From Escherichia coli (GTDB taxonomy: Bacteria; Pseudomonadota; Gammaproteobacteria; Enterobacterales; Enterobacteriaceae), in NCBI RefSeq assembly GCF_003334785.1, contig NZ_QOWV01000011.1: 64,000 nt of DNA, one strand, 5' to 3'. The number at the start of each line of letters is the position of its first letter. Position 1 is the stretch's first letter. Below are positions 3,376 to 53,947 of this stretch, in pieces. Below the pieces are notes generated by a model that saw only the letters and a list, made by a program, of their open reading frames with translations, did not search any database and was not told where the DNA came from. Both the position numbers and the translations under genes were made by a program.

Positions 3376-4102
3376 CGGGCGCTCCTTGCCAGAATGCCTG
3401 GATTAACGCAGTGAGGCAGCCACAGACAATGCCTGCCAGAATGGCGACGGGAATAGAAAATAGCGTTACGCCTGCAAGGGCACCAACTAACGCTGCGGTA
3501 ACGCAAAGAGATTGTTTGCGCTGGAAAGAGGCGAGCAGGAAACTCATAAAGAGTGCCGGAAGCATAAAACCTAATGCAGCTTCAACGGCGGGATAACCTT
3601 GCAGCAAGCCGCTGCCGGAGAATGCCCCTATTACCGTACCAAATACCCACGATGACCATGAACTGAAGGCAATGCCGATCATCCAGTTCTCGCTCCAGCG
3701 GCGATTATTGCGTACCAGTTTTGCGGTTGCGGCGGCAAAAACCTCATCCGTCAGGCCAAACGCCCACAGGGCGGTTTTCGATTTTTGCAGACGCTGAATA
3801 ATACGGCTACGCAGTGACGGGCCATACAACACATGGCGAACATCCATTGCCATGACGGTCAGTGCAGCAATCCACAAACTACTCCCGGCTGCCAGCATCG
3901 CGGTAATGACGAACTGGCTCGCGCCTGCATAAATGATGCAGGAGAAAAAAACGCTTTCGAGAGGAGAGAATCCCAGACGGGTCGCATTCAGACCGAACGC
4001 AAAGGCCACCGGAATATAACTAATAACAATCGGTAAACTGTCTTTGCATCCTTCCATGAAGGTCGCCGAACCAGGAGCAGGCTGTGGAGTAGGGCTTTCC
4101 AT
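3365..4102 (-). CDS. ygaZ: L-valine exporter large subunit YgaZ (AzlC-like)
   Basis: 245-aa membrane ORF; synteny ygaZ-ygaH next to mprA. Confidence 0.88.
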
Positions 4103-4225
4103 AGAGTGTACGCTTAACGATTGTTAATATTATAAATAGACTGAATGAATATCTTAACCTTATCAGACTGATGGGCTTCTTAACACCCTTATAAGTGTAA
4201 AGCCACGAAAACGGTTGCTGATTGC

Positions 4226-5410
4226 TTAATTTGCGGCTTCCTGACGATGAAAACCTCGCCACCAGACCAGTAAGTTAACCAGGGCAATCGTCGCGCCAGC
4301 CAGACAAACGCCAGCCCAACCGCCATGTTGCCAGGCTGAGGCTGAAATTAGCGAACCGGCGGCACCGCCAATAAAGTAGCTAGTCATGTAACCTGCGGTC
4401 AGGCGATTGCGCGCATCAGGATGTATCCGATAAATTACCGTCTGGTTAGTGATATGCACGCCCTGCACGGTGAGATCCAGCACCAGGATTCCGATAATCA
4501 ACGCCAGTACGGAAGTGTGACCAAACCAGATCGCCAGCCATGAAAGTAATAGCAGCAGCAGACCGAAAGTTGTGGTGTGGTGCGATTTGCCCTTATCGGC
4601 AAAACCGCCCGCCGGACGAGCGCCCAACGCTCCGGCAGCTCCCGCAAGTCCAAACAGACCAATGACACCATCGCTGTAGTTAAAAGGTGGAGCGGCAAGC
4701 AAAAAGGCCATTGAGGTCCAGAGAATGCTGAAATTGGCAAAGGTCAGGCAGCCCAGCAACGCGCGGGTACGCAGAATTTTATCGCTGATAAACATACTGA
4801 AAACGGAACCCAACAACTGTGGGTAGTTGAGGTGGGTTTCTGATTTCATTTGTGGCAGACCACGCCATAATGCCAGCGCCATCAGTGCCATTAACACCGA
4901 AGCAACCCAAAAGACGGTGCGCCAGCCGCCGAGATTCGCCAGCAATCCGGCAACTGTCCGTGCCAGCAAGATCCCCAACAGCAGACCGCTCATAATAGTG
5001 CCAACCACTTTGCCGCGTTTATCCGGTGAAGCCAGCGTCGCTGCCAGCGGAACCAGAATTTGTGCCACGACTGAGAATAAACCGGTTAATGCCGTACCGA
5101 GGATCATCATCGCCAGCGACTGACTGCTGGCGGTAATCAACATGCCGCATGCCGCCAGTAAGGTCATCGAGACAATCAGGCGGCGGCGTTCAAACATATC
5201 ACCGAGGGGAACAAGAAACAGTAGACCTGCGGCATAGCCCAACTGCGCGGCGGTAACAATAAAGCCTGCCGAACTGGCGGAAAGGGAAAAGTTACGCGCG
5301 ATGGTGTCGAGCAATGGCTGGGCGTAATAGTTACTGGCTACCGCCAGACCGGTGGCGATAGACATCAGCACGATCAGCGCCGGGCTAAGCTCATGATTAG
5401 GTTTAGTCAT
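4226..5410 (-). CDS. ygaY: MFS transporter YgaY (intact here)
   Basis: 394-aa uninterrupted ORF with 12-TM-like hydrophobic profile; positioned between proX and ygaZ where ygaY lies in K-12. Confidence 0.85.
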   Translation of the reverse strand: MTKPNHELSPALIVLMSIATGLAVASNYYAQPLLDTIARNFSLSASSAGFIVTAAQLGYAAGLLFLVPLGDMFERRRLIVSMTLLAACGMLITASSQSLAMMILGTALTGLFSVVAQILVPLAATLASPDKRGKVVGTIMSGLLLGILLARTVAGLLANLGGWRTVFWVASVLMALMALALWRGLPQMKSETHLNYPQLLGSVFSMFISDKILRTRALLGCLTFANFSILWTSMAFLLAAPPFNYSDGVIGLFGLAGAAGALGARPAGGFADKGKSHHTTTFGLLLLLLSWLAIWFGHTSVLALIIGILVLDLTVQGVHITNQTVIYRIHPDARNRLTAGYMTSYFIGGAAGSLISASAWQHGGWAGVCLAGATIALVNLLVWWRGFHRQEAAN

Positions 5411-5511
5411 TATTTTTGTTCATCAGGTGATGATTAAGCTGGAAATCAATAATAGCGGATGTTGATGAATATGGGATGAAAGATAGATTGTTGAAATGTG
5501 CGATGTGGTTT

Positions 5512-5592
5512 GTAGGCATGATAAGACGCGCCAGCGTCGCATCAGGCATTGTGCACAGAACGGCGGATGCGGCAAAAACGCCTTATCCGCCC
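5512..5592. repeat. REP (repetitive extragenic palindrome) pair in the ygaY-proX intergenic region
   Basis: gtaggcatgataagacgcgccagcgtcgcatcaggc and cggcggatgcggcaaaaacgccttatccgccc match the enterobacterial REP consensus family. Confidence 0.75.
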
Positions 5593-5601
5593 GAATAAAA
5601 A

Positions 5602-6594
5602 TTACTTCTGCGCTGCCAGCGCCTCATTCACCCAGCCATCGAACTGCTGCTGGTGGGCTTTGATCCAACCATCAACGTGTCCCTGAATATCGCCTTCTGA
5701 GGCTTTGCCGTCATGCATAATGGCGTTCTGGGCGTTAATATCTGCCACTGGCAACTGCATAATGGCAAACAGTTTCGCTGCTGCCGGGTTTTTCTCAGCC
5801 CAGGCTTTGTTGGCAACGATATGCATGGTGCTGACCGGGAAGCCATAATTCGCACCATTCGGCAGTTTGGTATCGGCGTTTTTATCGCCCGGCAGTGCGG
5901 AGAACGGCACCTGCAACCAGACGACATCTTTGCCCGGCTTCAGTTCGTTACTCACCCAGTACGGCGTCCAGGTGTAATAAAACACCGGTTTGCCCTCTTT
6001 GTAGCGACTGATGGTGTCGGCCATCATCGCTGCGTAGTTCCCCTGATTATGCGTCACGGTGTTGGTCAGTTCATACGCGGCAAGCTGGTGGTTGATCGCA
6101 CCTTCGCAGCCCCAGCCAGGGTTACAACCGGTTAAATCCGCTTTTCCGTCGCCGTTGGTATCGAACAGTTTGGCGATCTTCGGATCTTTCAGTTGTGCGA
6201 TGTTGGTGATTTTGTACTGGTCGGCGGTTTTCTTATCGATCAGGTAACCCTGTGCCGCGCCGTTAACAAATACCCCTTCACGATAAAATTTCTTATCGCC
6301 ACCGGCAGCTTCGTACATGTTGTCATGCAGTGGCGTCCAGTTCACGGCGGTGAAGGTTGCATCGCCGGAAGCAAGCGAGGTGTAGCCAACGTTGTAATCT
6401 ACTTCGCTGGGTTTGTTGACGGTATAACCTAATTTCTCCAGCGCACGACTGACCAGCAGCGTCTGGAAGGTTTCTTCAGTGATGGTGCTCTGAACTGGAT
6501 TAACAGTAATGCCTTTGCCCGGCAGATCGGCAGCAAAAGTTTGTGTAGAGATAAGCGTGGCAAACGCTGTCGCAAAAAGTACGCTATGTCGCAT
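5602..6594 (-). CDS. proX: Glycine betaine/proline ABC transporter periplasmic binding protein ProX
   Basis: ORF track 5602..6636; start placed at [21 protein letters not shown] (signal peptide), giving 330 aa as in ProX; follows proW. Confidence 0.92.
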
Positions 6595-6651
6595 TGTTAT
6601 TCCTTTTTTTGGCAGGGTGATAATGCCCGGCGTCACCGGGCAAGTGCAGAG

Positions 6652-45036: not shown

Positions 45037-47142
45037 ATGTTACGAAAAAGCAAACTTACAGAGATATATAAAAGGTTTGGTTTTACTGAAGAAAATACAG
45101 GTAACGAAAGTATTGCTGTATATTCTATTAAAACAGGGCACTACCATAACGCGGACATACTTCCACTAAATAATGAGGTTAATGTAAATCAAACCTTTGA
45201 AGAATATAGGCAGTTAGGTTATGCATGTCAAATTAAAAAATATCAGTCTTATGAAGAAGCACATAAGGAATTATTTAATGGCTTCTTTAGCGTCGATTCA
45301 ACTAAAGAAAGGTTGATTAAAGATTATAATACTTTCACAGATTCAATTGTAAAAATTCACTCACCTACTGCAACTTATTCCTACATAAATTCAAAATATT
45401 ACTTAAATGGTGTTATTGGCGAAGCTAATGTTGTTACGGAAATATTAGAGAGAATACAACATAGGCGTCCAATTCTGTTTTTGATTGAGGCTGCAGCCGG
45501 TTTTGGAAAGACTTGCACGGCGTATGAATTATTGAGGGAGATTATAGTTAACAATATAGGGAAAATACCATTATTTTCAGAACTATCAAGGAATAGGCAA
45601 GCAAAAATATTCAGGTATGTACTATTAGATGAAATTGATAGAAGTTTTCCTTTGTTAAGCTCAGCCTTAGTAAGGAATGAAATAAGAGCAGGAAATGTAC
45701 CAGTTATACTTGACGGGTTTGATGAACTATTGCATGAAAGTACAAACGGAATTGAAAATAATTATGAAAAAACAGAGCCAATGCTGGAAACAATAAGTGA
45801 GCTTCTAACTGATAGTGCAAAAGTGGTTTTGACAACTCGAAGAACAGCTATATTTGACGGAGATGAATTCCATCAGTGGATAGCATCACATCAAGAAGAT
45901 TTTGATGTGATAAGAATAAGAATTCATGAACCACAAATTGAAGACTGGCTTCCAGGTCAACGTTTAGATGAAATTTCATCGACAGGATTTCCTCTTAACA
46001 AATTATCAAACCCTGTACTGCTATCATTTCTAAGATGCATCGACGACACCGACTTTAATAAAGTTATAAGCGACCCAACAACTATAGTGAGGAAGTATTT
46101 TGATTCAATGCTTGAGCGAGAAAGAAAAAGACAAGATTTATTAATGTCTATTGAAGATCAATATACTATACTAAAAATAATAGCTGACGACATGGTCGAG
46201 GGTAACTACACATCTGAGTCTAGAGAGTATATATCGTTAGTCATAACTGAAAAGAATCAACAACTCTTGGAGGCTACAAGAAAGCTTTATACTGTAGATG
46301 AAAGACCAACTACTGACGAATTAGTTAATAAATTAGCATCGCATGCTCTATTAGATCGGTCAGGCTCAGAAAACCAAGGTATTGGATTTGTTAATGAATT
46401 TGTTCTTGGTAATTTTGTTTCTGAAAATATTATTAATGATAAGTCAAATGAATGGATTGGTGATAAACGTTTTATAGAACCAGCAGTGCAATCTTATATG
46501 CCGAGGATCGATGATGAAAAAGAATTACTTTGGCATAGCTTAGAGTTTGCTTTATATTTTATGTCAGGTAATGATAAAATCCTTTATAGTCATTTGCTTA
46601 TAGGAAAAGTTCCATTAGATTTAAAAAATGATAGTGTTGAGCAATTGTCTATATCAAAACTTTCTTTAGGCGATATAAATATAATACATGATACTATCTT
46701 TGTTGATTGTTCGTTTTTTAGCAGCATATTTACCTGTGGTAATTATAAAAACGTTACATTCGTGAACTGTTCTTTTATAGATTGTAGTTTTAACGAATTA
46801 AGTGGTAGGGAAGATATTTATTTTTTGGGATGTGAATGTGACAATGATGCTATTAATAAAAAATCTGTCGAGATAAACAGTGAAAATGATCACGATATTA
46901 CAGATTGTGATATTTACATCTTAGAGAAGTTCTGTCCCAGAGGGAGTGTTAGCTATCATAAGCATCGGCCTATAAAAGGCTTATGTTCTAACAACAATCA
47001 ATTTCAGTTAAGTGAAATACTCCATTCTTTAGATAAATTGAGGAAAGACGGTCTTTTACTTACGCCAGACAAGCGTTCGTTCCTTGAACTTAACATGGCA
47101 AGAATATCAGAGATTAAAGCAATTCTTGGGAGGAATTTCTGA
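45037..47142 (+). CDS. STAND/NACHT-type P-loop NTPase with C-terminal pentapeptide-like repeats (candidate sensor)
   Basis: ORF track 45028..47142; start at ATG 45037 with AGGAGG RBS 45024-45029. Walker A AAAGFGKT, Walker B hhhhDGFDE (VPVILDGFDELL), sensor-like VVLTTRRT; C-terminal FVDCSF...FVNCSF...FIDCSF five-residue periodicity. Confidence 0.8.
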   Translation: MLRKSKLTEIYKRFGFTEENTGNESIAVYSIKTGHYHNADILPLNNEVNVNQTFEEYRQLGYACQIKKYQSYEEAHKELFNGFFSVDSTKERLIKDYNTFTDSIVKIHSPTATYSYINSKYYLNGVIGEANVVTEILERIQHRRPILFLIEAAAGFGKTCTAYELLREIIVNNIGKIPLFSELSRNRQAKIFRYVLLDEIDRSFPLLSSALVRNEIRAGNVPVILDGFDELLHESTNGIENNYEKTEPMLETISELLTDSAKVVLTTRRTAIFDGDEFHQWIASHQEDFDVIRIRIHEPQIEDWLPGQRLDEISSTGFPLNKLSNPVLLSFLRCIDDTDFNKVISDPTTIVRKYFDSMLERERKRQDLLMSIEDQYTILKIIADDMVEGNYTSESREYISLVITEKNQQLLEATRKLYTVDERPTTDELVNKLASHALLDRSGSENQGIGFVNEFVLGNFVSENIINDKSNEWIGDKRFIEPAVQSYMPRIDDEKELLWHSLEFALYFMSGNDKILYSHLLIGKVPLDLKNDSVEQLSISKLSLGDINIIHDTIFVDCSFFSSIFTCGNYKNVTFVNCSFIDCSFNELSGREDIYFLGCECDNDAINKKSVEINSENDHDITDCDIYILEKFCPRGSVSYHKHRPIKGLCSNNNQFQLSEILHSLDKLRKDGLLLTPDKRSFLELNMARISEIKAILGRNF

Positions 47143-48047
47143 TGTATAACGGGAATGAATTGCGAATTATTCAAAGTTTGCAAAAAGATATAGAAGATGA
47201 ACTTAATCGTATTGGATTACTTTATCGTTTTTTTTCGAGGACAAAATCAGAAAGCTCAATAATTAAGAAATATGAAAAAGAGCCTAATAAATACTCAGAG
47301 GATGGTAAAAAAATTCAAGACTTATTTGGGGTTAGGATAATATTATATTTTCCTGATGATTTATTTATTGCTCAAAAAACACTGGAGAAATTATTCGAAA
47401 TTGAATCTAAAACCGTAGACGAAACCACGGCTAATCTCTTTGCGGCAACTCGATGCAATTACGTCTTTAAGTTACCAGAAGTATTATCAAATGATAGTGT
47501 CTTATTAAAGAAATATTCTTATATTGATACTACTTTTGAAGTCCAATTTAGAACTATTTTATCTGAAGGATGGCATGAAGTTGAGCATGATCTACGCTAT
47601 AAGTGCAAAGAGGATTGGGTTGAGCATAATGACCTTAGTCGCGCGCTGAATGGAATTTACGCCTCTTTGGAAACATCTGATTGGGGAATAATGAAGTTAT
47701 TTGAGGATTTAGCATATAGAAATTATAAGTCAAGCGCATGGTCCGCTATGCTAAGAAATAAATTAAGATTGAGAATGGACGATAAGCTTGATGAAAAGAT
47801 AATTTCAATAATTAATGAGAAAGAGCTTGGTAAAAAGTTTTATAGAATTGACAGAGATCGTTTGTTATCGTTAATGTTAGATTATAATATTGATATACCA
47901 ATTAATCTTAATAATATAATTTACCTTTGTAATTATTTTTTCATAAAATCTACGGAGCTTCAGGATATAGCCCCTGCTTTAATAATGAAAAAGCTTACAG
48001 ATGCTGATGAAAAATTCAATAAAAATACTATTTTAGCATCTAAATAA
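47142..48047 (+). CDS. RelA/SpoT-homologue (small alarmone synthetase / toxSAS-like) nucleotide pyrophosphokinase (candidate effector)
   Basis: 301-aa ORF; start ATG overlaps the upstream TGA (tgATGa); GGGAGG RBS. Synthetase motifs: RTKSESSIIKKYEK (Syn1-like), DLFGVRIIL (DxxGxR), EVQFRTILSEGWHEVEHDLRYK (ExQxRT...W.E..H...YK). Confidence 0.8.
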   Translation: MYNGNELRIIQSLQKDIEDELNRIGLLYRFFSRTKSESSIIKKYEKEPNKYSEDGKKIQDLFGVRIILYFPDDLFIAQKTLEKLFEIESKTVDETTANLFAATRCNYVFKLPEVLSNDSVLLKKYSYIDTTFEVQFRTILSEGWHEVEHDLRYKCKEDWVEHNDLSRALNGIYASLETSDWGIMKLFEDLAYRNYKSSAWSAMLRNKLRLRMDDKLDEKIISIINEKELGKKFYRIDRDRLLSLMLDYNIDIPINLNNIIYLCNYFFIKSTELQDIAPALIMKKLTDADEKFNKNTILASK

Positions 48048-48103: not shown

Positions 48104-49099
48104 ATTATGTGAAGTGATGATGATAGCAAATCTGCTATCTTTATGGTTGGATGCGAGAAAATATTTTTATCCCGACACAACAACTGGTAATGATAGAAAA
48201 TTTAAACCCAAAAATGCTACAGTAGCCTCAGCTCACAAACGGAGTATAAAGTGGCGGTTACTCTTTAGTGGGAATACTGTAGATAGTTGATAAACTGGGC
48301 TGGATTTTCTTTTCTAACCGAAGGGAAGAAAAGCAAGGGGAACCCAAAGAAACAAGCGCAGCGGCTTCGTAGGGTTAGCCCTTGCTTCTTTTATAATTGG
48401 CATTATTCATTCAAGAACAATAGGATCTTCGCTTGTACAAGCGAAGCTATAATAAAAAATCAATTAATTATTTTAAAAGTATTAAGCAAGAGCCTATTGA
48501 CATTCGTAAAATAAAAGTTATTTTTAATGTATGCCATAAATAAAAAGTTTTATGTCATATGTATCCTGCACTATGTGCAGTTAATGTGCCACTTGTCCCA
48601 TATATGGGAATATTGGAAAGGTTACTTTGTTTTGAAGTAGCCTTTCGTCCTTCAATATTCACGATTACTTATTGCTATTACCAAGTCCAGTCGAATCGAA
48701 GAACATCTTTTATCTGAAACGACTCCTAATACCAGGTTGAAGCCACAATATCTCTCGCATAAGTAGACCAAAGAAAAATTATGATATTAACTATGTGATT
48801 TTTTTTAGTGTTAAGTTGAATAATTATATACTGGAGAGTTTTCTGTACACTACCAATTGCTGGTTCATCTGTTCTGCCGCTGATGTTTCTGACTAATCTC
48901 CCGGTGACACAGAACTGTCCCTCTCTACCAGCCTTTATTCGACTCAATGTCCGGCTGCTGATACGCAGTTATCCCTTCGTATCAATGACTGACTCTTAAA
49001 CGCAATGCTTTGGTTGCTGGCGTATCTGACAGCTTCTTCGGCGTGAAGGTCGTTGTGTAAGTATACTTCTTGGTTTATTTAGGCTATATAAAACCATGA

Positions 49100-49996
49100 C
49101 TATGACTGGCTGTTTTCAGTAAGAGTCTTATCATCCAAAGAATTTATTCTAGAAATTCTTTTTAACTCATTAAGATAATCAACCTCGTTTTCTAAGAACC
49201 AATGAAGAACTTTAGAGTTGCCAAGTAATTTATTAATATATGACTGGATTATAACGAATTTCAACATATCTGAACCATACTCGGTTTGAAGTTTTTTCGT
49301 TTCTTCCGAAGTTGTTGCCATTTCTTGTTCCAGACGAAGTATGGTTTTTTTTATGTCCTTTTTATAGGGAGTGTTTTTCCCTTTATTTACTATCATCGAT
49401 GACGGTGTTGCATCCAAGATGCTCATTGCAAATTTTTTACTATAATTATCAAAATTAATCATTGTACCGACTGCTTCAATTTGACGAATTGGCTTCATTT
49501 TCCTCAAAACGTCAAATGTAGCCTTAGGTATAGGTTTATCAGAAAGTTTCGCAATTACACTTGGATCTATGCCGTTCATCACATTAGCTTTATCTTTTAT
49601 GGCATCAACAGATATGCCCAAAGCAGCACTAAGTTTTTCAATTGATACTTTTGCCAGAGACTTAATTATCATTCTATGTTCTTCAACTACATTTATATGA
49701 TTCACTTGTTTGTTAGGAGTGAAAGCATCATCTATGCTCGAAAGTATACATGGAGCTTTTTCTATATCTAAGTCTTTTAAAGCCTCAACCCTTAAATGGC
49801 CATCAAGTATCTTAGTGACATCTTTATCTTTGTCATAGAATACTATTATTGGTTCAATAATACCCAAGCTTTCGATAGAGGTAACTATTTGATGATATTT
49901 ATGGCTTCGCTTTACGTTTTCTAATAATTCCTTAGATGGAATTAACTTATTAGTTTCCAGGTAAATAAAATTTTTGCCAAAACGTATCTGAATCAT
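49100..49996 (-). CDS. ParB/Srx-domain protein 2 (ParB-like DNA-binding/nuclease fold)
   Basis: 298-aa ORF with ILDGHLRVEAL motif (ParB-box-like DGxxR) and HTH-like LSAALGISVDAIK; start overlaps stop of upstream paralogue (ATGA). Confidence 0.65.
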   Translation of the reverse strand: MIQIRFGKNFIYLETNKLIPSKELLENVKRSHKYHQIVTSIESLGIIEPIIVFYDKDKDVTKILDGHLRVEALKDLDIEKAPCILSSIDDAFTPNKQVNHINVVEEHRMIIKSLAKVSIEKLSAALGISVDAIKDKANVMNGIDPSVIAKLSDKPIPKATFDVLRKMKPIRQIEAVGTMINFDNYSKKFAMSILDATPSSMIVNKGKNTPYKKDIKKTILRLEQEMATTSEETKKLQTEYGSDMLKFVIIQSYINKLLGNSKVLHWFLENEVDYLNELKRISRINSLDDKTLTENSQS

Positions 49997-50889
49997 TTTG
50001 ATACCTCTTTGTTTACTGGGTTTAATATCTGAGATGGTAGTTCTGAAAGATTCTCTTGTTCAAGTATATTTTGAAAGCTTTTATTCATCATTATGATGTT
50101 AAAAATCTCATTTATTATTAGTAGATTGGTTTTTATAAATTTCGAGTTGTTATAAACAGATTTATGTTCAGCGATACTATTTTCATAAAGCTCAATCAAC
50201 TCCTCTGCAGTCATCCTTTTTGATGGTTTGTGATAATAAAATCCGGCTGCTTTTGCACCTTTATTCCCAACTGTTCTTTGATTTAGAATGTATTTTATCT
50301 TTATAATGTCCCGACTTTTTATTAATTTTTTATCATATGCTTCGGTAAGAATATCTTGTGCTTCCTCAGTTTCACATCTTGCAAATTGCACTGCGAGATA
50401 CAGAGGCAAATTACCCCGTTCGACTGCTGAGAGAAGTTTATGCTCTCCCTTATCAAGAAGCATATTAATACTGCTCACCCAGTTCGATGAATATCCAGTA
50501 ATCTCACTTATTTCGGAGTCTGAAAGTCCTCTGATTTTCATGTCTTTAATCACCTGTAATAACTCATTAGAACGTGGTCTTCTCCTTGCAATGTTTTCAA
50601 CTAAACTCATAACGTAAGCATCTTCTTCTGATACATCTCTTATAATTGCTGGAATAATAGTTTCACCTAATGCAACAAGAGCCTCTATTCTCCCTTGACC
50701 ACAAATTAAAGCATATTTGAAATCGTCTTCATCAATAGCTCTTACGCTTATAGGCTTGCTTAATCCTCTTTTTTTTATGCTTTCCTTTATTTCTTCATGC
50801 ACTACCTTATTTCTTGTTCGTGGGTTAAGAAATTTTATTTTTGCAATCTCAATTTGAATTATTGGGAATTCATTTTTTTCAGGCAGCAT
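49993..50889 (-). CDS. ParB/Srx-domain protein 1
   Basis: 298-aa ORF with LICGQGRIEAL motif and ...LVENIARRRP...; overlaps serine recombinase stop by 11 nt. Confidence 0.65.
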   Translation of the reverse strand: MLPEKNEFPIIQIEIAKIKFLNPRTRNKVVHEEIKESIKKRGLSKPISVRAIDEDDFKYALICGQGRIEALVALGETIIPAIIRDVSEEDAYVMSLVENIARRRPRSNELLQVIKDMKIRGLSDSEISEITGYSSNWVSSINMLLDKGEHKLLSAVERGNLPLYLAVQFARCETEEAQDILTEAYDKKLIKSRDIIKIKYILNQRTVGNKGAKAAGFYYHKPSKRMTAEELIELYENSIAEHKSVYNNSKFIKTNLLIINEIFNIIMMNKSFQNILEQENLSELPSQILNPVNKEVSK

Positions 50890-52435
50890 ATAGTTCCCTC
50901 ACTTTCATGCGAGTAATAATTTGTAGAAATTTATCAAGATTATCAAATCTATAGAGATCTAACCGAATGTTGTTTGTTTCCATCATACACATTTTACTAT
51001 ATTCGTTTTCAATCTTTGGTATGATATAAAAATCAAGAGGTGAAATATTTTGTGAATTCATTCGTATAACAATTGTTATGTCTGCTTTCTGTGAGTTATC
51101 AAACCGGACTTTCCATCTAAGTTTACCTGATTTCATATGTATGCATTTAGTAACAAGGACGGAAATTAAAAACTCATCATTGATGTAAAGCATTGGGTAA
51201 TATTTATACTCGTCTATATGACAGTTACTTTTTAATATTTCGCCCTTAAAATCCTCAATTATCTCTGAGTAAAATGATCTTAGTGCTTCATTTATTTGGA
51301 GATAGCTGTAATCATGTTCTGGCTTATAACCAATCAAAGTATATGCTCTTAAAAGACCACCAAATCGGGTTCTATAAACAGAAGATGAAGGGCCTGTATC
51401 ATCTTCATCAATGATAAAGCCTGATAGTTTTCCATTAGATTCTAATTTTTCTTTTAGCTTTTCTAATAGATCTTCATTAGTCAAATGAATGGATCGGAGC
51501 TGAATTATTTCTTGAGCTTTATTATATTTTTTCTTTGAAATAATTGGTTTATATGCCTTGTCACATCTAATCCATTCATGTTTGGGGTTTTTTACAAGCT
51601 TACTTTTTAGTTTAGATGAGGTTTTGTTATATATGTTGTTTCCAATATATTTTTCATTTGTCAAAATTTGATGTATTTTTGCACGAGTCCATGATGTTCC
51701 ATTTTCTGCAGGTATGCTCTGTTCATTTAATCTCTCAGCAATAATGAATTCTGGGACGTTACTATCTATAAAGAGATCATAGATTCTATTTACAATTTTT
51801 ATTTCATTTTTTGGTCCCGGAATTAATATTACCCTATCTGTTTGAATACTCTTTCTTTTGCGGAAATTCAATATTTCTTTAGCTATGCCATTTTCGTCTA
51901 CTAAAAGACGTCTCAGCCCATAACCAGCCATACCGCCTTGATGATAACCAAGCTTTATTAAATTTACTTGCCCTATAAATACCTTTTCAGATAGATTCCT
52001 GCTGTGATATGCAGCACTTGATCTTTTTATATTCAGTATAACAGAGGACTCTAAAGGGAAATCTTTAGTGGGTATAGGTTCGGAACAATATATAAGATCT
52101 ACACCATTTCTTTCAAATAGAAAGGAATAATATGCAGCTTCATCACTATTTTGAAAACGACCAAAACGGCTCACATCATAAAATAATACAGCCTGTATAT
52201 CTATTTTCTTTTGTTCTACATCGCTAAGTAACTGCTGCAAAGAATGCCTGCCTACGATACTGACTCCGCTCTTACCTGCATCATCGTAGGTATAAGCGAT
52301 TTCCATATTGTTCTTTTCAGCATAATCTTTGATATATTCAGACTGATTATGTAAAGAATATTGCTGATGGTCGGTAGACATCCTCAAGTACTGTGCGACC
52401 CTAACTCTATGATTTTTTTCATTTCCGCTAGCCAT
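50879..52435 (-). CDS. Large serine recombinase (resolvase/invertase catalytic domain plus recombinase domain)
   Basis: ORF track 50879..52441 (TTG); ATG at 52433-52435 with GAGG RBS. N-terminal YLRMSTDHQ catalytic-serine motif, ~518 aa. Confidence 0.8.
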   Translation of the reverse strand: MASGNEKNHRVRVAQYLRMSTDHQQYSLHNQSEYIKDYAEKNNMEIAYTYDDAGKSGVSIVGRHSLQQLLSDVEQKKIDIQAVLFYDVSRFGRFQNSDEAAYYSFLFERNGVDLIYCSEPIPTKDFPLESSVILNIKRSSAAYHSRNLSEKVFIGQVNLIKLGYHQGGMAGYGLRRLLVDENGIAKEILNFRKRKSIQTDRVILIPGPKNEIKIVNRIYDLFIDSNVPEFIIAERLNEQSIPAENGTSWTRAKIHQILTNEKYIGNNIYNKTSSKLKSKLVKNPKHEWIRCDKAYKPIISKKKYNKAQEIIQLRSIHLTNEDLLEKLKEKLESNGKLSGFIIDEDDTGPSSSVYRTRFGGLLRAYTLIGYKPEHDYSYLQINEALRSFYSEIIEDFKGEILKSNCHIDEYKYYPMLYINDEFLISVLVTKCIHMKSGKLRWKVRFDNSQKADITIVIRMNSQNISPLDFYIIPKIENEYSKMCMMETNNIRLDLYRFDNLDKFLQIITRMKVRELYAA

Positions 52436-52717: not shown

Positions 52718-53947
52718 TTATGCGGCAATAACTTTGTATTTTTGAGACGAAACATAGTCACTCCACCATTGCATGAGAACCACACGTTCTGTGAGATACT
52801 CTGCACGATTGTAGGCTGCAATTATTTCATCTTTTTTCGAGTGGGCAAGGGCGGCTTCTAAGACATCAGTTCTAAACTTGCCACACTCCTCAGCCGCCGT
52901 TCTAGCGATTGATCGCATACCATGAGCTACAAGCTCACCTCCGAAGCCCATACGGATTATAGCCGCATTAGCTGTTTGTTCATGCATGTGATTGAGTGGA
53001 GCTTTGATACTGGGAAAAACCCACTCTCTATGCCCGCTGATGGCTTTCATTGAATCCAAGACTCGCAAAGATTCTTTGCTCAGTGGAACTTTGTGAGGCT
53101 TCTTCATTTTCATAAACTCCGCCGGGATGTTCCACATGCTGGTTTCTATATCAATATCTGACCATCTTGTGCGAACAGCTTCACCAGGGCGAACCCATGT
53201 GAGAAGTTGCCACTCAATCAGTAGCCTTGTTTCTAAACGGATAGAAGCATTGTTTAGAGCAACCAGGAAGCGGGGGAGTTCGGAAGGGGGTAATGCTGGC
53301 ATATTCTGTTTTTTTGGCTTGCTGAACCGTTGCCCCAGGTTGTCAGCCGGATTGAATTCTATGAGTTCTTCTGTTGCTGCATAGCGGAAAATTTCATTCA
53401 GGCGGGATATGACGCGGCGAAGTGTTTCAAGGACACCTCGTTTTTCTATGGGGTCTAAATGCTGTTTAAGCATTTTAGGGCGAATCTCCTTAATGGGGGT
53501 ATCACCCAACGTTGGAAAGATATTTCTCTCTAGGCTTCGCCAGATGTCGTTAGCATGATCCTGGGAGATGCCTGACGTTTTGACTTTCTCATCAAGCCAC
53601 TTCTTGGCTACTGCTTGAAATGTATGTTCCGTTGCATCCTTAAGGGCATTGGCTTTGTGGGTGTTATGAACTTGTGGGTCTATACCATTTGCAAGCAACG
53701 ACAAGTACTCATCACGTAAAGCTCGTGCCTTCGCAAGTGTAAGGTGAGGATAGGTTCCTAAGCTCACCTTAGTTCGCTTTTTGGTCACAGGCACTGCATA
53801 TCTGAAATACCAATTTTTCTTTCCTCCCTTCGCTAAGGGGGCGATTCGCAGGAGCAAACCATCGCCGTCAAAAAGGTTAACCTCTTTCTCGGCAGGTTTG
53901 GTGCTTTTGATTTCAGTGTCAGTGAGCTTCTTAGCGATTTTTGCCAT
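52718..53947 (-). CDS. P4-type tyrosine integrase (phage integrase family)
   Basis: ORF track 52718..54091 runs into the ssrA terminator; start placed at MAKIAKKLTDTEIK (ATG 53945-53947, 409 aa). C-terminal catalytic HxxR (VAHGMRS) and Tyr (AAYNRAEY); adjacent to ssrA. Confidence 0.85.
   Translation of the reverse strand: MAKIAKKLTDTEIKSTKPAEKEVNLFDGDGLLLRIAPLAKGGKKNWYFRYAVPVTKKRTKVSLGTYPHLTLAKARALRDEYLSLLANGIDPQVHNTHKANALKDATEHTFQAVAKKWLDEKVKTSGISQDHANDIWRSLERNIFPTLGDTPIKEIRPKMLKQHLDPIEKRGVLETLRRVISRLNEIFRYAATEELIEFNPADNLGQRFSKPKKQNMPALPPSELPRFLVALNNASIRLETRLLIEWQLLTWVRPGEAVRTRWSDIDIETSMWNIPAEFMKMKKPHKVPLSKESLRVLDSMKAISGHREWVFPSIKAPLNHMHEQTANAAIIRMGFGGELVAHGMRSIARTAAEECGKFRTDVLEAALAHSKKDEIIAAYNRAEYLTERVVLMQWWSDYVSSQKYKVIAA

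Follow-up and report, generated by a model that had tools for sequence, protein, structure and literature searches.

The Avs systems rely on a STAND NTPase that, on sensing a phage protein, forms oligomers and turns on an effector. Under the model proposed below, the same logic would hold for two adjoining genes at positions 45,037 to 48,047 of a 64,000-nucleotide stretch of Escherichia coli DNA (contig NZ_QOWV01000011.1 of NCBI RefSeq assembly GCF_003334785.1; the whole stretch is 'the window' in what follows), the first of which, gene 1, specifies an NLR-like NACHT/STAND protein and the second, gene 2, a RelA/SpoT-type enzyme. Avs proteins, however, belong to other STAND clades, usually have their effector in cis and carry tetratricopeptide repeat-like sensors. 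Bacterial immunity has established members of both kinds, NLR-like STAND proteins and RelA/SpoT toxins, but an NLR controlling a RelA/SpoT enzyme is yet to be characterised. The explanation favoured here, at a probability of about 0.62, is that the pair is an NLR-like abortive-infection module in which the product of gene 1 would be a sensor that activates an effector encoded in trans by gene 2. That its genes adjoin at every locus checked and often have anti-phage genes for neighbours makes the pair a credible candidate for a phage-defence system.

For gene 1 the pertinent comparison is with bacterial NACHT (bNACHT) proteins, others of which have antiphage activity in E. coli (Kibby et al., bioRxiv 10.1101/2022.07.19.500537). 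Clade 15 of that preprint lists proteins with NA-iREase2 and NACHT domains, with or without a pentapeptide domain, e.g. V. cholerae WP_142737953.1 (Table S1); the bNACHTs tested are almost all single genes with the effector either fused or absent, and the tested members of clade 15 (bNACHT09, 34 and 69) have other N-termini (10.1101/2022.07.19.500537). Gene 1 has in common with clade 15 the NACHT core, the NA-iREase2 N-terminus and the pentapeptide C-terminus, a likeness judged from architecture. It differs from the tested members in having a catalytically dead N-terminal domain and, in every locus checked, a second gene adjoining it. A search of the preprint by accession, peptide string, RelA, SpoT and alarmone brought up no mention of a partner gene or of the pair. 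Gene 1 was also not found in its table of tested genes, though sequences are abbreviated there, so this check is not exhaustive.

For gene 2 the relevant precedents are enzymes of the RelA/SpoT superfamily with a toxic role. CapRel is a RelA/SpoT enzyme that serves as an abortive-infection effector, with an essential G-loop tyrosine (Y155) and a C-terminal pseudo-zinc-finger domain (pseudo-ZFD) that is its antitoxin and sensor (Zhang et al. 2022, PMC9712102), and toxSAS toxin-antitoxin loci have an overlapping bicistronic layout (Jimmy et al. 2020, PMC7229694). In gene 2, in contrast to CapRel, the C-terminal domain is all-helical with no fused pseudo-ZFD, the essential tyrosine is not conserved, sequence similarity of CapRel level is lacking, and the sensor would be a separate STAND NTPase. 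With respect to toxSAS loci, the pair has no small antitoxin or small alarmone hydrolase (SAH) gene, a 700-aa NACHT gene being the sole conserved neighbour in 46 loci. An earlier reading of the window, made from its letters and open reading frames (ORFs) and referred to here as the sequence-only reading, had held the pair to be neither a toxSAS pair nor a CapRel-type fusion, and this is upheld by the lack of a small antitoxin, the helical C-terminus and the lack of a profile match.

Union of the two modules is itself not without parallel. Fungal NLRs with N-terminal RelA_SpoT, in the order RelA_SpoT-NACHT-WD40, are described (Dyrka et al. 2014, PMC4986451), and, in the preprint by Kibby et al., Table S1 has a Tox-RelA+NACHT protein from Reticulomyxa and the supplementary discussion names "alarmone synthetases" among NACHT-fused effectors (10.1101/2022.07.19.500537). 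These eukaryotic proteins have the same pairing of an NLR-type NTPase with a RelA/SpoT enzyme, but they are single uncharacterised polypeptides in which the enzyme is N-terminal, whereas here the enzyme has its own coupled downstream gene and the N-terminal position is taken by a dead restriction-endonuclease fold. By analogy, the antiphage role of bNACHTs, alarmone synthetases as fused NACHT effectors and the effector role of CapRel may all be seen as precedents for the pair.

The sequence-only reading also knew of no characterised system with this architecture. For the two-gene system that statement stands, as judged from PADLOC 2.0, NCBIfam 20.0 and the literature; for the individual parts it does not. 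What is new is the two-gene system; NA-iREase2, bNACHT clade 15 and NACHT-alarmone synthetase fusions have already been described. NCBIfam 20.0 (June 2026) has no specific model for either gene, and a literature search by accession, by PDC-S33 (a PADLOC profile dealt with below) and by NACHT or STAND together with alarmone or toxSAS topics found no study of the pair, nor do the specific candidate papers that were checked deal with it. Since neither PADLOC-DB 2.0 nor NCBIfam 20.0 has a model for it, the pair is missed in the defence inventories that they produce. Its family is widespread and reaches gut Bacteroides and Klebsiella IncF plasmids.

Two genes in one unit

Both ORFs lie on the + strand where the sequence-only reading had placed them, and RefSeq annotates the same two genes. 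Their parts are as follows.

45037-47142, + strand: gene 1 (WP_000944877.1, 'NACHT domain-containing protein' in RefSeq), 701 aa, ATG at 45037 and TGA at 47140-47142; predicted NLR-like NACHT/STAND NTPase, from the ORF, Pfam, an AlphaFold (AF2) model, Foldseek and 1630 homologue clusters
45052-45405, + strand: NA-iREase2 domain, aa 6-123 of gene 1 (Pfam PF22723, E = 3.2e-33); restriction-endonuclease fold without (D/E)xK, proposed adaptor for gene 2
45412-46596, + strand: NACHT NTPase module, aa ~126-520 (invariant columns, weak Pfam NACHT match, fold matches)
46609-46851, + strand: pentapeptide-repeat β-helix, aa ~525-605 (Pentapeptide_4, E = 0.007, and modelled β-ladder), proposed ligand sensor
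aa 606-622 of gene 1: variable acidic linker ahead of the C-terminal domain (conservation)
46903-47139, + strand: small basic C-terminal α/β domain, aa 623-701, isoelectric point (pI) ~9.2 (model secondary structure, conservation, pI)
47140-47144, + strand: TGATG stop/start overlap, probable translational coupling (sequence; like overlaps in most of 46 related loci)
47142-48047, + strand: gene 2 (WP_000282312.1, 'RelA/SpoT domain-containing protein'), 301 aa, ATG at 47142; RelA/SpoT-type pyrophosphokinase, proposed effector
47142-47621, + strand: gene 2 synthetase domain, aa 1-160 (86-sequence alignment; alignments to RelQ and RelP)
47622-48044, + strand: gene 2 all-helical C-terminal domain, aa ~161-301, basic (model, pI); common to fusion proteins of a sister clade

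The genes overlap by a single base, the A of TGATG. Its extent had been given correctly, but the junction had been written tgATGa, and the base following TGATG is t and not a.

A search with the gene 1 alignment through genomes, one for each species, yielded 49 loci, distributed over Gamma- and Betaproteobacteria, Campylobacterota, Myxococcota, Bacteroidota, Firmicutes and Spirochaetes (at least six phyla). Three end at a contig edge, and in every one of the 46 with downstream DNA a gene 2 homologue is directly downstream on the same strand, the junctions being mostly overlaps of 1 or 4 bases. The homologues of the two genes therefore co-occur, a check that had been suggested with the sequence-only reading, at all the loci that are informative, and the same is so from the opposite starting point, since three distant relatives of gene 2, at 35-36% identity, follow an NA-iREase2 gene with stop and start overlapping. 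The hit lists for gene 1 and gene 2 share contigs, with identities running in parallel, and homologues number in the thousands. Distance matrices for the two genes correlate at r = 0.76-0.90, and therefore partners have not been swapped. Clustering of all flanking ORFs brought out no third conserved gene, the sole other recurrent cluster being a shadow ORF that lies within gene 1 in antisense. The pair is a unit, and its occurrence is well beyond chance.

The NACHT/STAND protein and its N-terminal domain

The motifs quoted in the sequence-only reading (Walker A, NACHT-type Walker B, TTR and, for gene 2, DLFGVR) are all present, those of gene 1 being AAGFGKT (aa 152-159), PVILDGFDELL (aa 222-231) and LTTRRTA (aa 265-271). 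In 21- and 44-sequence alignments that extend down to 29% identity, the invariant residues are G155, K158, T159, D226-G-F-D229-E230, R268 (of TTRRT), N325-P326 and H436 (of ASHALLD). From their position in the structure model, R268 and H436 may be equivalent to the sensor-1 arginine and the winged-helix histidine of NLRs, respectively. The model itself, an AF2 prediction built on the 44-sequence alignment, has a predicted local distance difference test score (pLDDT) of 85, and its top 16 Foldseek matches in the PDB are all NLRs (NLRP7, NLRP14, NLRP3, NAIP5 and NLRP5-type, with E values of 2e-8 to 3e-6), Cdc6/ORC and Clp AAA+ proteins ranking below them. The NACHT/STAND assignment holds on motifs and on the fold, which is NLR-like in its NBD-HD-WHD arrangement. 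A precomputed PF05729 (Pfam NACHT) match is present in some homologues.

In one respect the sequence-only reading has to be corrected: the N-terminal domain, described there as unassigned, matches Pfam NA-iREase2 ('NACHT-associated inactive restriction endonuclease 2') with the E value listed above. Column counts leave D/E40 as the sole conserved acidic position of the domain, and in them there is neither a (D/E)xK catalytic motif nor a conserved lysine. The motif LFxGFF (aa 79-84) stands out, as its L79, F80, F83 and F84 are invariant in 40/40 gene 1 sequences. On this evidence the N-terminal domain is a known, and by its motifs catalytically dead, restriction-endonuclease fold. Neither Pfam nor the structure model revealed another enzymatic domain in gene 1. 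With the nuclease motif dead and LFxGFF kept, gene 1 is therefore without a recognisable enzymatic effector of its own.

This bears on the direction in which the signal might flow. In the reverse arrangement, the RelA/SpoT enzyme would sense infection or stress and its nucleotide would activate the NACHT protein, the effector being the restriction-endonuclease fold or the C-terminal domain. NACHT modules do bind nucleotides, D/E40 is conserved in the restriction-endonuclease fold, and the basic C-terminal domain of gene 1 could bind nucleic acid. Set against these, (D/E)xK is missing and NA-iREase2 is inactive by the Pfam definition, the rest of gene 1 offers no enzymatic domain to take its place, and gene 2 has no recognisable sensor domain while the variable repeats are in gene 1, so that flow in this direction is judged highly improbable.

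The repeats in question are of interest in their own right. Their classification as pentapeptide is weak by sequence, Pentapeptide_4 matching aa 554-587 at E = 0.007, but it fits a ladder of β-strands predicted by the model at aa 533-597. (Weak NCBIfam matches of gene 1 to HalA and QnrS were discarded, as they merely reflect pentapeptide repeats.) Together with the acidic linker, the pentapeptide region is the least conserved part of gene 1, and its β-helix is the fastest-diverging folded region: mean pairwise identity is 27% there versus 55% for the nucleotide-binding domain, and even in the closest relative it is 81% identical with the remainder at 89-93%. Such a pattern of variability is as would be expected for a ligand-sensing surface.

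The RelA/SpoT-type enzyme and its proposed activation

The assignment of gene 2 to the RelA/SpoT superfamily, likewise made at the outset from motifs, is borne out by Pfam, by invariant catalytic residues and by fold. Pfam RelA_SpoT (PF04607) matches aa 32-157 at E = 8e-15, and QDLFGVRI is at aa 59-66. The Syn motifs are RxKxxxSxxxK, DxxGxR (with the Mg-binding Asp), ExQxRT (with the catalytic Glu) and EHxxxYK; in an alignment of 86 sequences the ATP-binding and catalytic R33, K35, K43, D60, R65, E133, Q135, R137, E146, H149, Y153 and K154 are invariant in all 86, and S39 is present in 85. Further residues of the synthetase domain that are invariant in that alignment are D73, F100, N106 and W159. 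Comparison of the structure model with the PDB identifies the nucleotidyltransferase fold of small alarmone synthetases. RelQ and RelP (PDB 5DEC, 6EWZ, 6FGK and 2BE3) are the best matches in both sequence and structure and have the Syn motifs in common with gene 2; the family profile meets them in the PDB at ~1e-13 to 7e-15, and at E <= 1 it matched neither CapRel (7ZTB) nor Tas1.

The differences from RelQ and RelP are substantial. Identity is 15-22%, the GYRSxH acceptor loop is replaced, a helical domain of 140 aa is added, and gene 2 is carried by a mobile element in linkage with a NACHT gene. The equivalent of the G-loop reads F100-x-[PA]-x-R104-x-N106-[LIY]-[VI]-F and has no conserved Tyr or His, though alignment of the loop is uncertain, and the synthetase domain is acidic (pI about 5.4-6.0). 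For the all-helical C-terminal domain of ~140 aa, no structural match was seen among the PDB hits listed. Judging from its catalytic residues, gene 2 is almost certainly an active pyrophosphokinase, with an acceptor that is not readable from sequence.

In the favoured explanation, the NACHT protein would rest in an ADP-bound, autoinhibited form until its β-helix or C-terminal region recognised an invader's protein, such as one from a phage, or a disturbance that infection brings about. NTP-dependent oligomerisation of gene 1 product would bring the NA-iREase2 domains together, and these, once clustered, would recruit the separate RelA/SpoT enzyme or switch it on allosterically. Gene 2 product would transfer pyrophosphate from ATP to an acceptor, for which the candidates are ADP or ATP (yielding (p)ppApp and draining ATP), GDP or GTP (yielding (p)ppGpp), the 3' end of tRNA, or something non-canonical, and the outcome would be growth arrest that aborts the infection. 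Gene 2 would be an effector that is off by default and needs no antitoxin to restrain it.

Such a split layout would separate sensing from killing, with a dead nuclease fold bearing an invariant LFxGFF as the proposed link between NLR and enzyme. How an NLR oligomer switches on an enzyme to which it is not fused becomes testable in E. coli, as does the nature of the product made by a divergent pyrophosphokinase. A more far-reaching version, which is possible but distinctly doubtful, is that the dead restriction-endonuclease-fold adaptor of an NLR trans-activates a pyrophosphokinase with a product or target new to the superfamily. That version includes an acceptor loop unlike those of all the pyrophosphokinases for (p)ppGpp, (p)ppApp and tRNA characterised so far. 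If true, it would add both a new mechanism of NLR trans-activation and a new effector chemistry.

A sister clade of stand-alone proteins of 590-800 aa (P0308, P0319, P0336, P0356, P0389 and others; loci L052 and L053) has the same synthetase plus helical module, aligning to gene 2 as far as about aa 280-297. In 25 of the 29 long relatives of gene 2, the C-terminal module resembles the N-terminal part of the PADLOC model HEC-07, whose N-terminal domains are, according to the model's authors, AdoMetDC-like and thioredoxin-like. These proteins look like single-chain relatives in which the enzyme would stand in place of the HEC-07 RelE toxin domain. In P0344 the module is instead fused to AAA_28 and CYTH. 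Re-use of the synthetase plus helical module with different partners, as these alignments suggest, is a typical habit of defence effectors. The idea that long gene 2 relatives have a P-loop NTPase fused in cis was rejected, as a Walker A was present in just 1 of the 29 (P0344), and the gene 1 family HMM (hidden Markov model) matches none of them.

Surroundings, decay and direction of control

The pair is in an island inserted at ssrA (tmRNA, 54114-54476), whose tyrosine integrase, at ~52718-53947, is 4.7 kb downstream of the pair, in keeping with the 5 kb given earlier. G+C content is 31-33% in the pair and about 50% in flanking core genes. By megablast, 76 of the 5426 complete E. coli genomes have the 3.2-kb stretch with the pair at >= 99% identity, in each case in the chromosome. 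Elsewhere the pair is also carried by plasmids. One instance is a divergent pair (locus L054; gene 1 at 36% identity) at 3615-6598 of the K. pneumoniae IncFIB/IncFII plasmid OW967220.1, a conjugative plasmid of clinical Klebsiella, where its neighbours are pifC in one direction and replication and XerD genes in the opposite one; it is found on other plasmids as well.

Directly upstream of the pair in the window is what is, on sequence, a decayed restriction-modification (R-M) system, as an ORF of 90 aa at 43925-44197 on the - strand, a DUF4928 fragment in RefSeq, matches PADLOC REase_II (7.5e-42) and corresponds to the last 88 residues of a type II enzyme. Comparable company is kept at other loci. 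In a Bacteroidales metagenome-assembled genome (MAG) from horse gut (L033, 1521-11195) the pair interrupts a type I R-M operon, with hsdM-hsdS to one side of it and hsdR to the other, a model case of a candidate system lodged among known defence genes, and in an uncultured Prevotellaceae MAG (L029) AbiEi and AbiEii are directly upstream of it, with ORFs of the L029 AbiE clusters recurring in 4 other loci, Bacteroides included. Further neighbours are a type III restriction endonuclease, a type IV-like restriction endonuclease, type I R-M genes, Mrr, and DndB with HNH. Being enclosed by or adjoining defence systems, association with mobile elements and a patchy occurrence are, in combination, what usually marks defence cargo.

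Carriage by phages themselves is another matter. Homologues of gene 1 are absent from 50,697 GenBank phage records, and the 7 matches in IMG/VR are predicted proviruses from isolate genomes, and so are no evidence of carriage by phages. In four, identity to gene 1 is 99-100%, and these probably represent this same ssrA island.

Decay of the locus within E. coli is informative as to control. A frameshift splits gene 1 in one genome (L056) and an IS66-family insertion sequence (IS) truncates it in another (L058), while other damage (L056-L058; hits H1, H60 and H63-H69) comprises IS2 upstream, insertions of IS2, IS3 or ISVsa5 within the locus, and 5' deletions; in some genomes the last 560 bp of gene 2 is all that remains. 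Independent inactivation of the locus has occurred time and again in E. coli, and several of the affected genomes retain an intact gene 2 beside a broken gene 1, which argues against gene 1 being a required antitoxin and fits an enzyme that would be off until gene 1 activates it.

The contrary proposition is a toxin-antitoxin or addiction pair, in which gene 2 would specify a toxSAS-like enzyme that is toxic at all times and the NACHT protein would be a large antitoxin, with the pair stabilising the island or plasmid, or firing when the antitoxin is degraded. The overlapping bicistronic layout does resemble that of toxSAS loci, and residence of the pair on plasmids, IncF among them, and on mobile islands is also in its favour. 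However, apart from the survival of intact gene 2 next to frameshifted or IS-truncated gene 1, the would-be antitoxin is a STAND NTPase, 701 aa long and invariant in the residues that bind NTP, and not a small neutraliser or SAH, and it has a fast-evolving repeat region typical of a sensor. Addiction is accordingly considered quite unlikely.

A non-immune function also has to be considered, in which an NTPase-regulated small alarmone synthetase would form an accessory stress-signalling module tuning (p)ppGpp for the host or the mobile element. The point in its favour is that the nearest relatives of gene 2, in sequence and fold, are RelQ and RelP, which are housekeeping enzymes. Gene 2 does not, though, conserve the G-loop with which (p)ppGpp synthetases bind the acceptor, and a patchy horizontal distribution with low G+C content and repeated decay in E. 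coli, and positions enclosed by or adjoining R-M, AbiE, Mrr and Dnd-type genes, are at variance with such a role, making it very unlikely. Explanations outside those considered here are allotted a small share of the probability.

None of the computational tests that the sequence-only reading had named as able to refute it went against it, and it is supported to that extent. Several observations nevertheless weigh against activation of gene 2 by gene 1 as an immune mechanism, or against parts of it. The contact between NA-iREase2 and gene 2 is a proposal to which a mirror-tree analysis for each domain of gene 1, with partial correlations, adds nothing, since all domains correlate and none, NA-iREase2 included, is singled out. 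The helical domain of gene 2 is also in fusion proteins with no NACHT neighbour and therefore is not a dedicated NACHT-docking domain. A broken gene 1 may silence gene 2 by polarity or loss of the promoter, in which case the enzyme need not be intrinsically inactive. The sequence, with an acidic synthetase domain and no G-loop Tyr, gives no advantage to either a (p)ppGpp or a tRNA model. As to recognition by profiles, the Pfam NACHT match of gene 1 (aa 150-271, 16.4 bits, E = 0.008) is marginal, no model of PADLOC-DB 2.0, those for Avs included, matches gene 1, and the match of PADLOC PDC-S33 to gene 2 (E = 8.4e-5, 20 bits) is weak and partial, pairing aa 8-84 with profile positions 46-119 of 349. 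Finally, in a partial sampling of about 25 large neighbours, about half are non-defence genes.

Signals that may govern expression of the pair, for which the evidence is weak in the case of the regulatory region and the terminator, are the following.

44908-44971, + strand: putative regulatory region, a sigma-70-like site with an overlapping inverted repeat
44908-44936, + strand: sigma-70-like site CTTACA-17-TATTAT (consensus scan), the sole promoter-like site upstream of gene 1
44909-44932 and 44948-44971: arms of a 24-nt imperfect inverted repeat, 79% complementary, 15-nt spacer (inverted-repeat search)
45023-45028, + strand: ribosome-binding site AGGAGG, 8 nt ahead of the gene 1 ATG (read from the sequence)
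48122-48139, + strand: terminator-like hairpin with a T-rich tail, 75 nt past gene 2 (consensus scan)

The inverted repeat over the promoter-like site could be an operator or form an RNA hairpin. An Enterobacter copy of the regulatory region is 98% identical, which is too similar for its conservation to be judged.

The ssrA island also has genes for a relaxase and a further recombinase, and two ParB-like genes. On the - strand at 49100-52435 is an unusual block made up of two tandem ParB-like genes of 298 aa each, with a 4-nt overlap, and a 518-aa gene annotated 'recombinase family', followed by the tyrosine integrase and then ssrA. Further away in the window, near the far end of a ypjA/CP4-57-like region, ARAGORN calls a tRNA-Met (CAT) at 27889-27964, and at the corresponding place in a related genome a tRNA-Ile is annotated; if it is the same gene, it would be the usual lysidine-modified CAT tRNA-Ile2.

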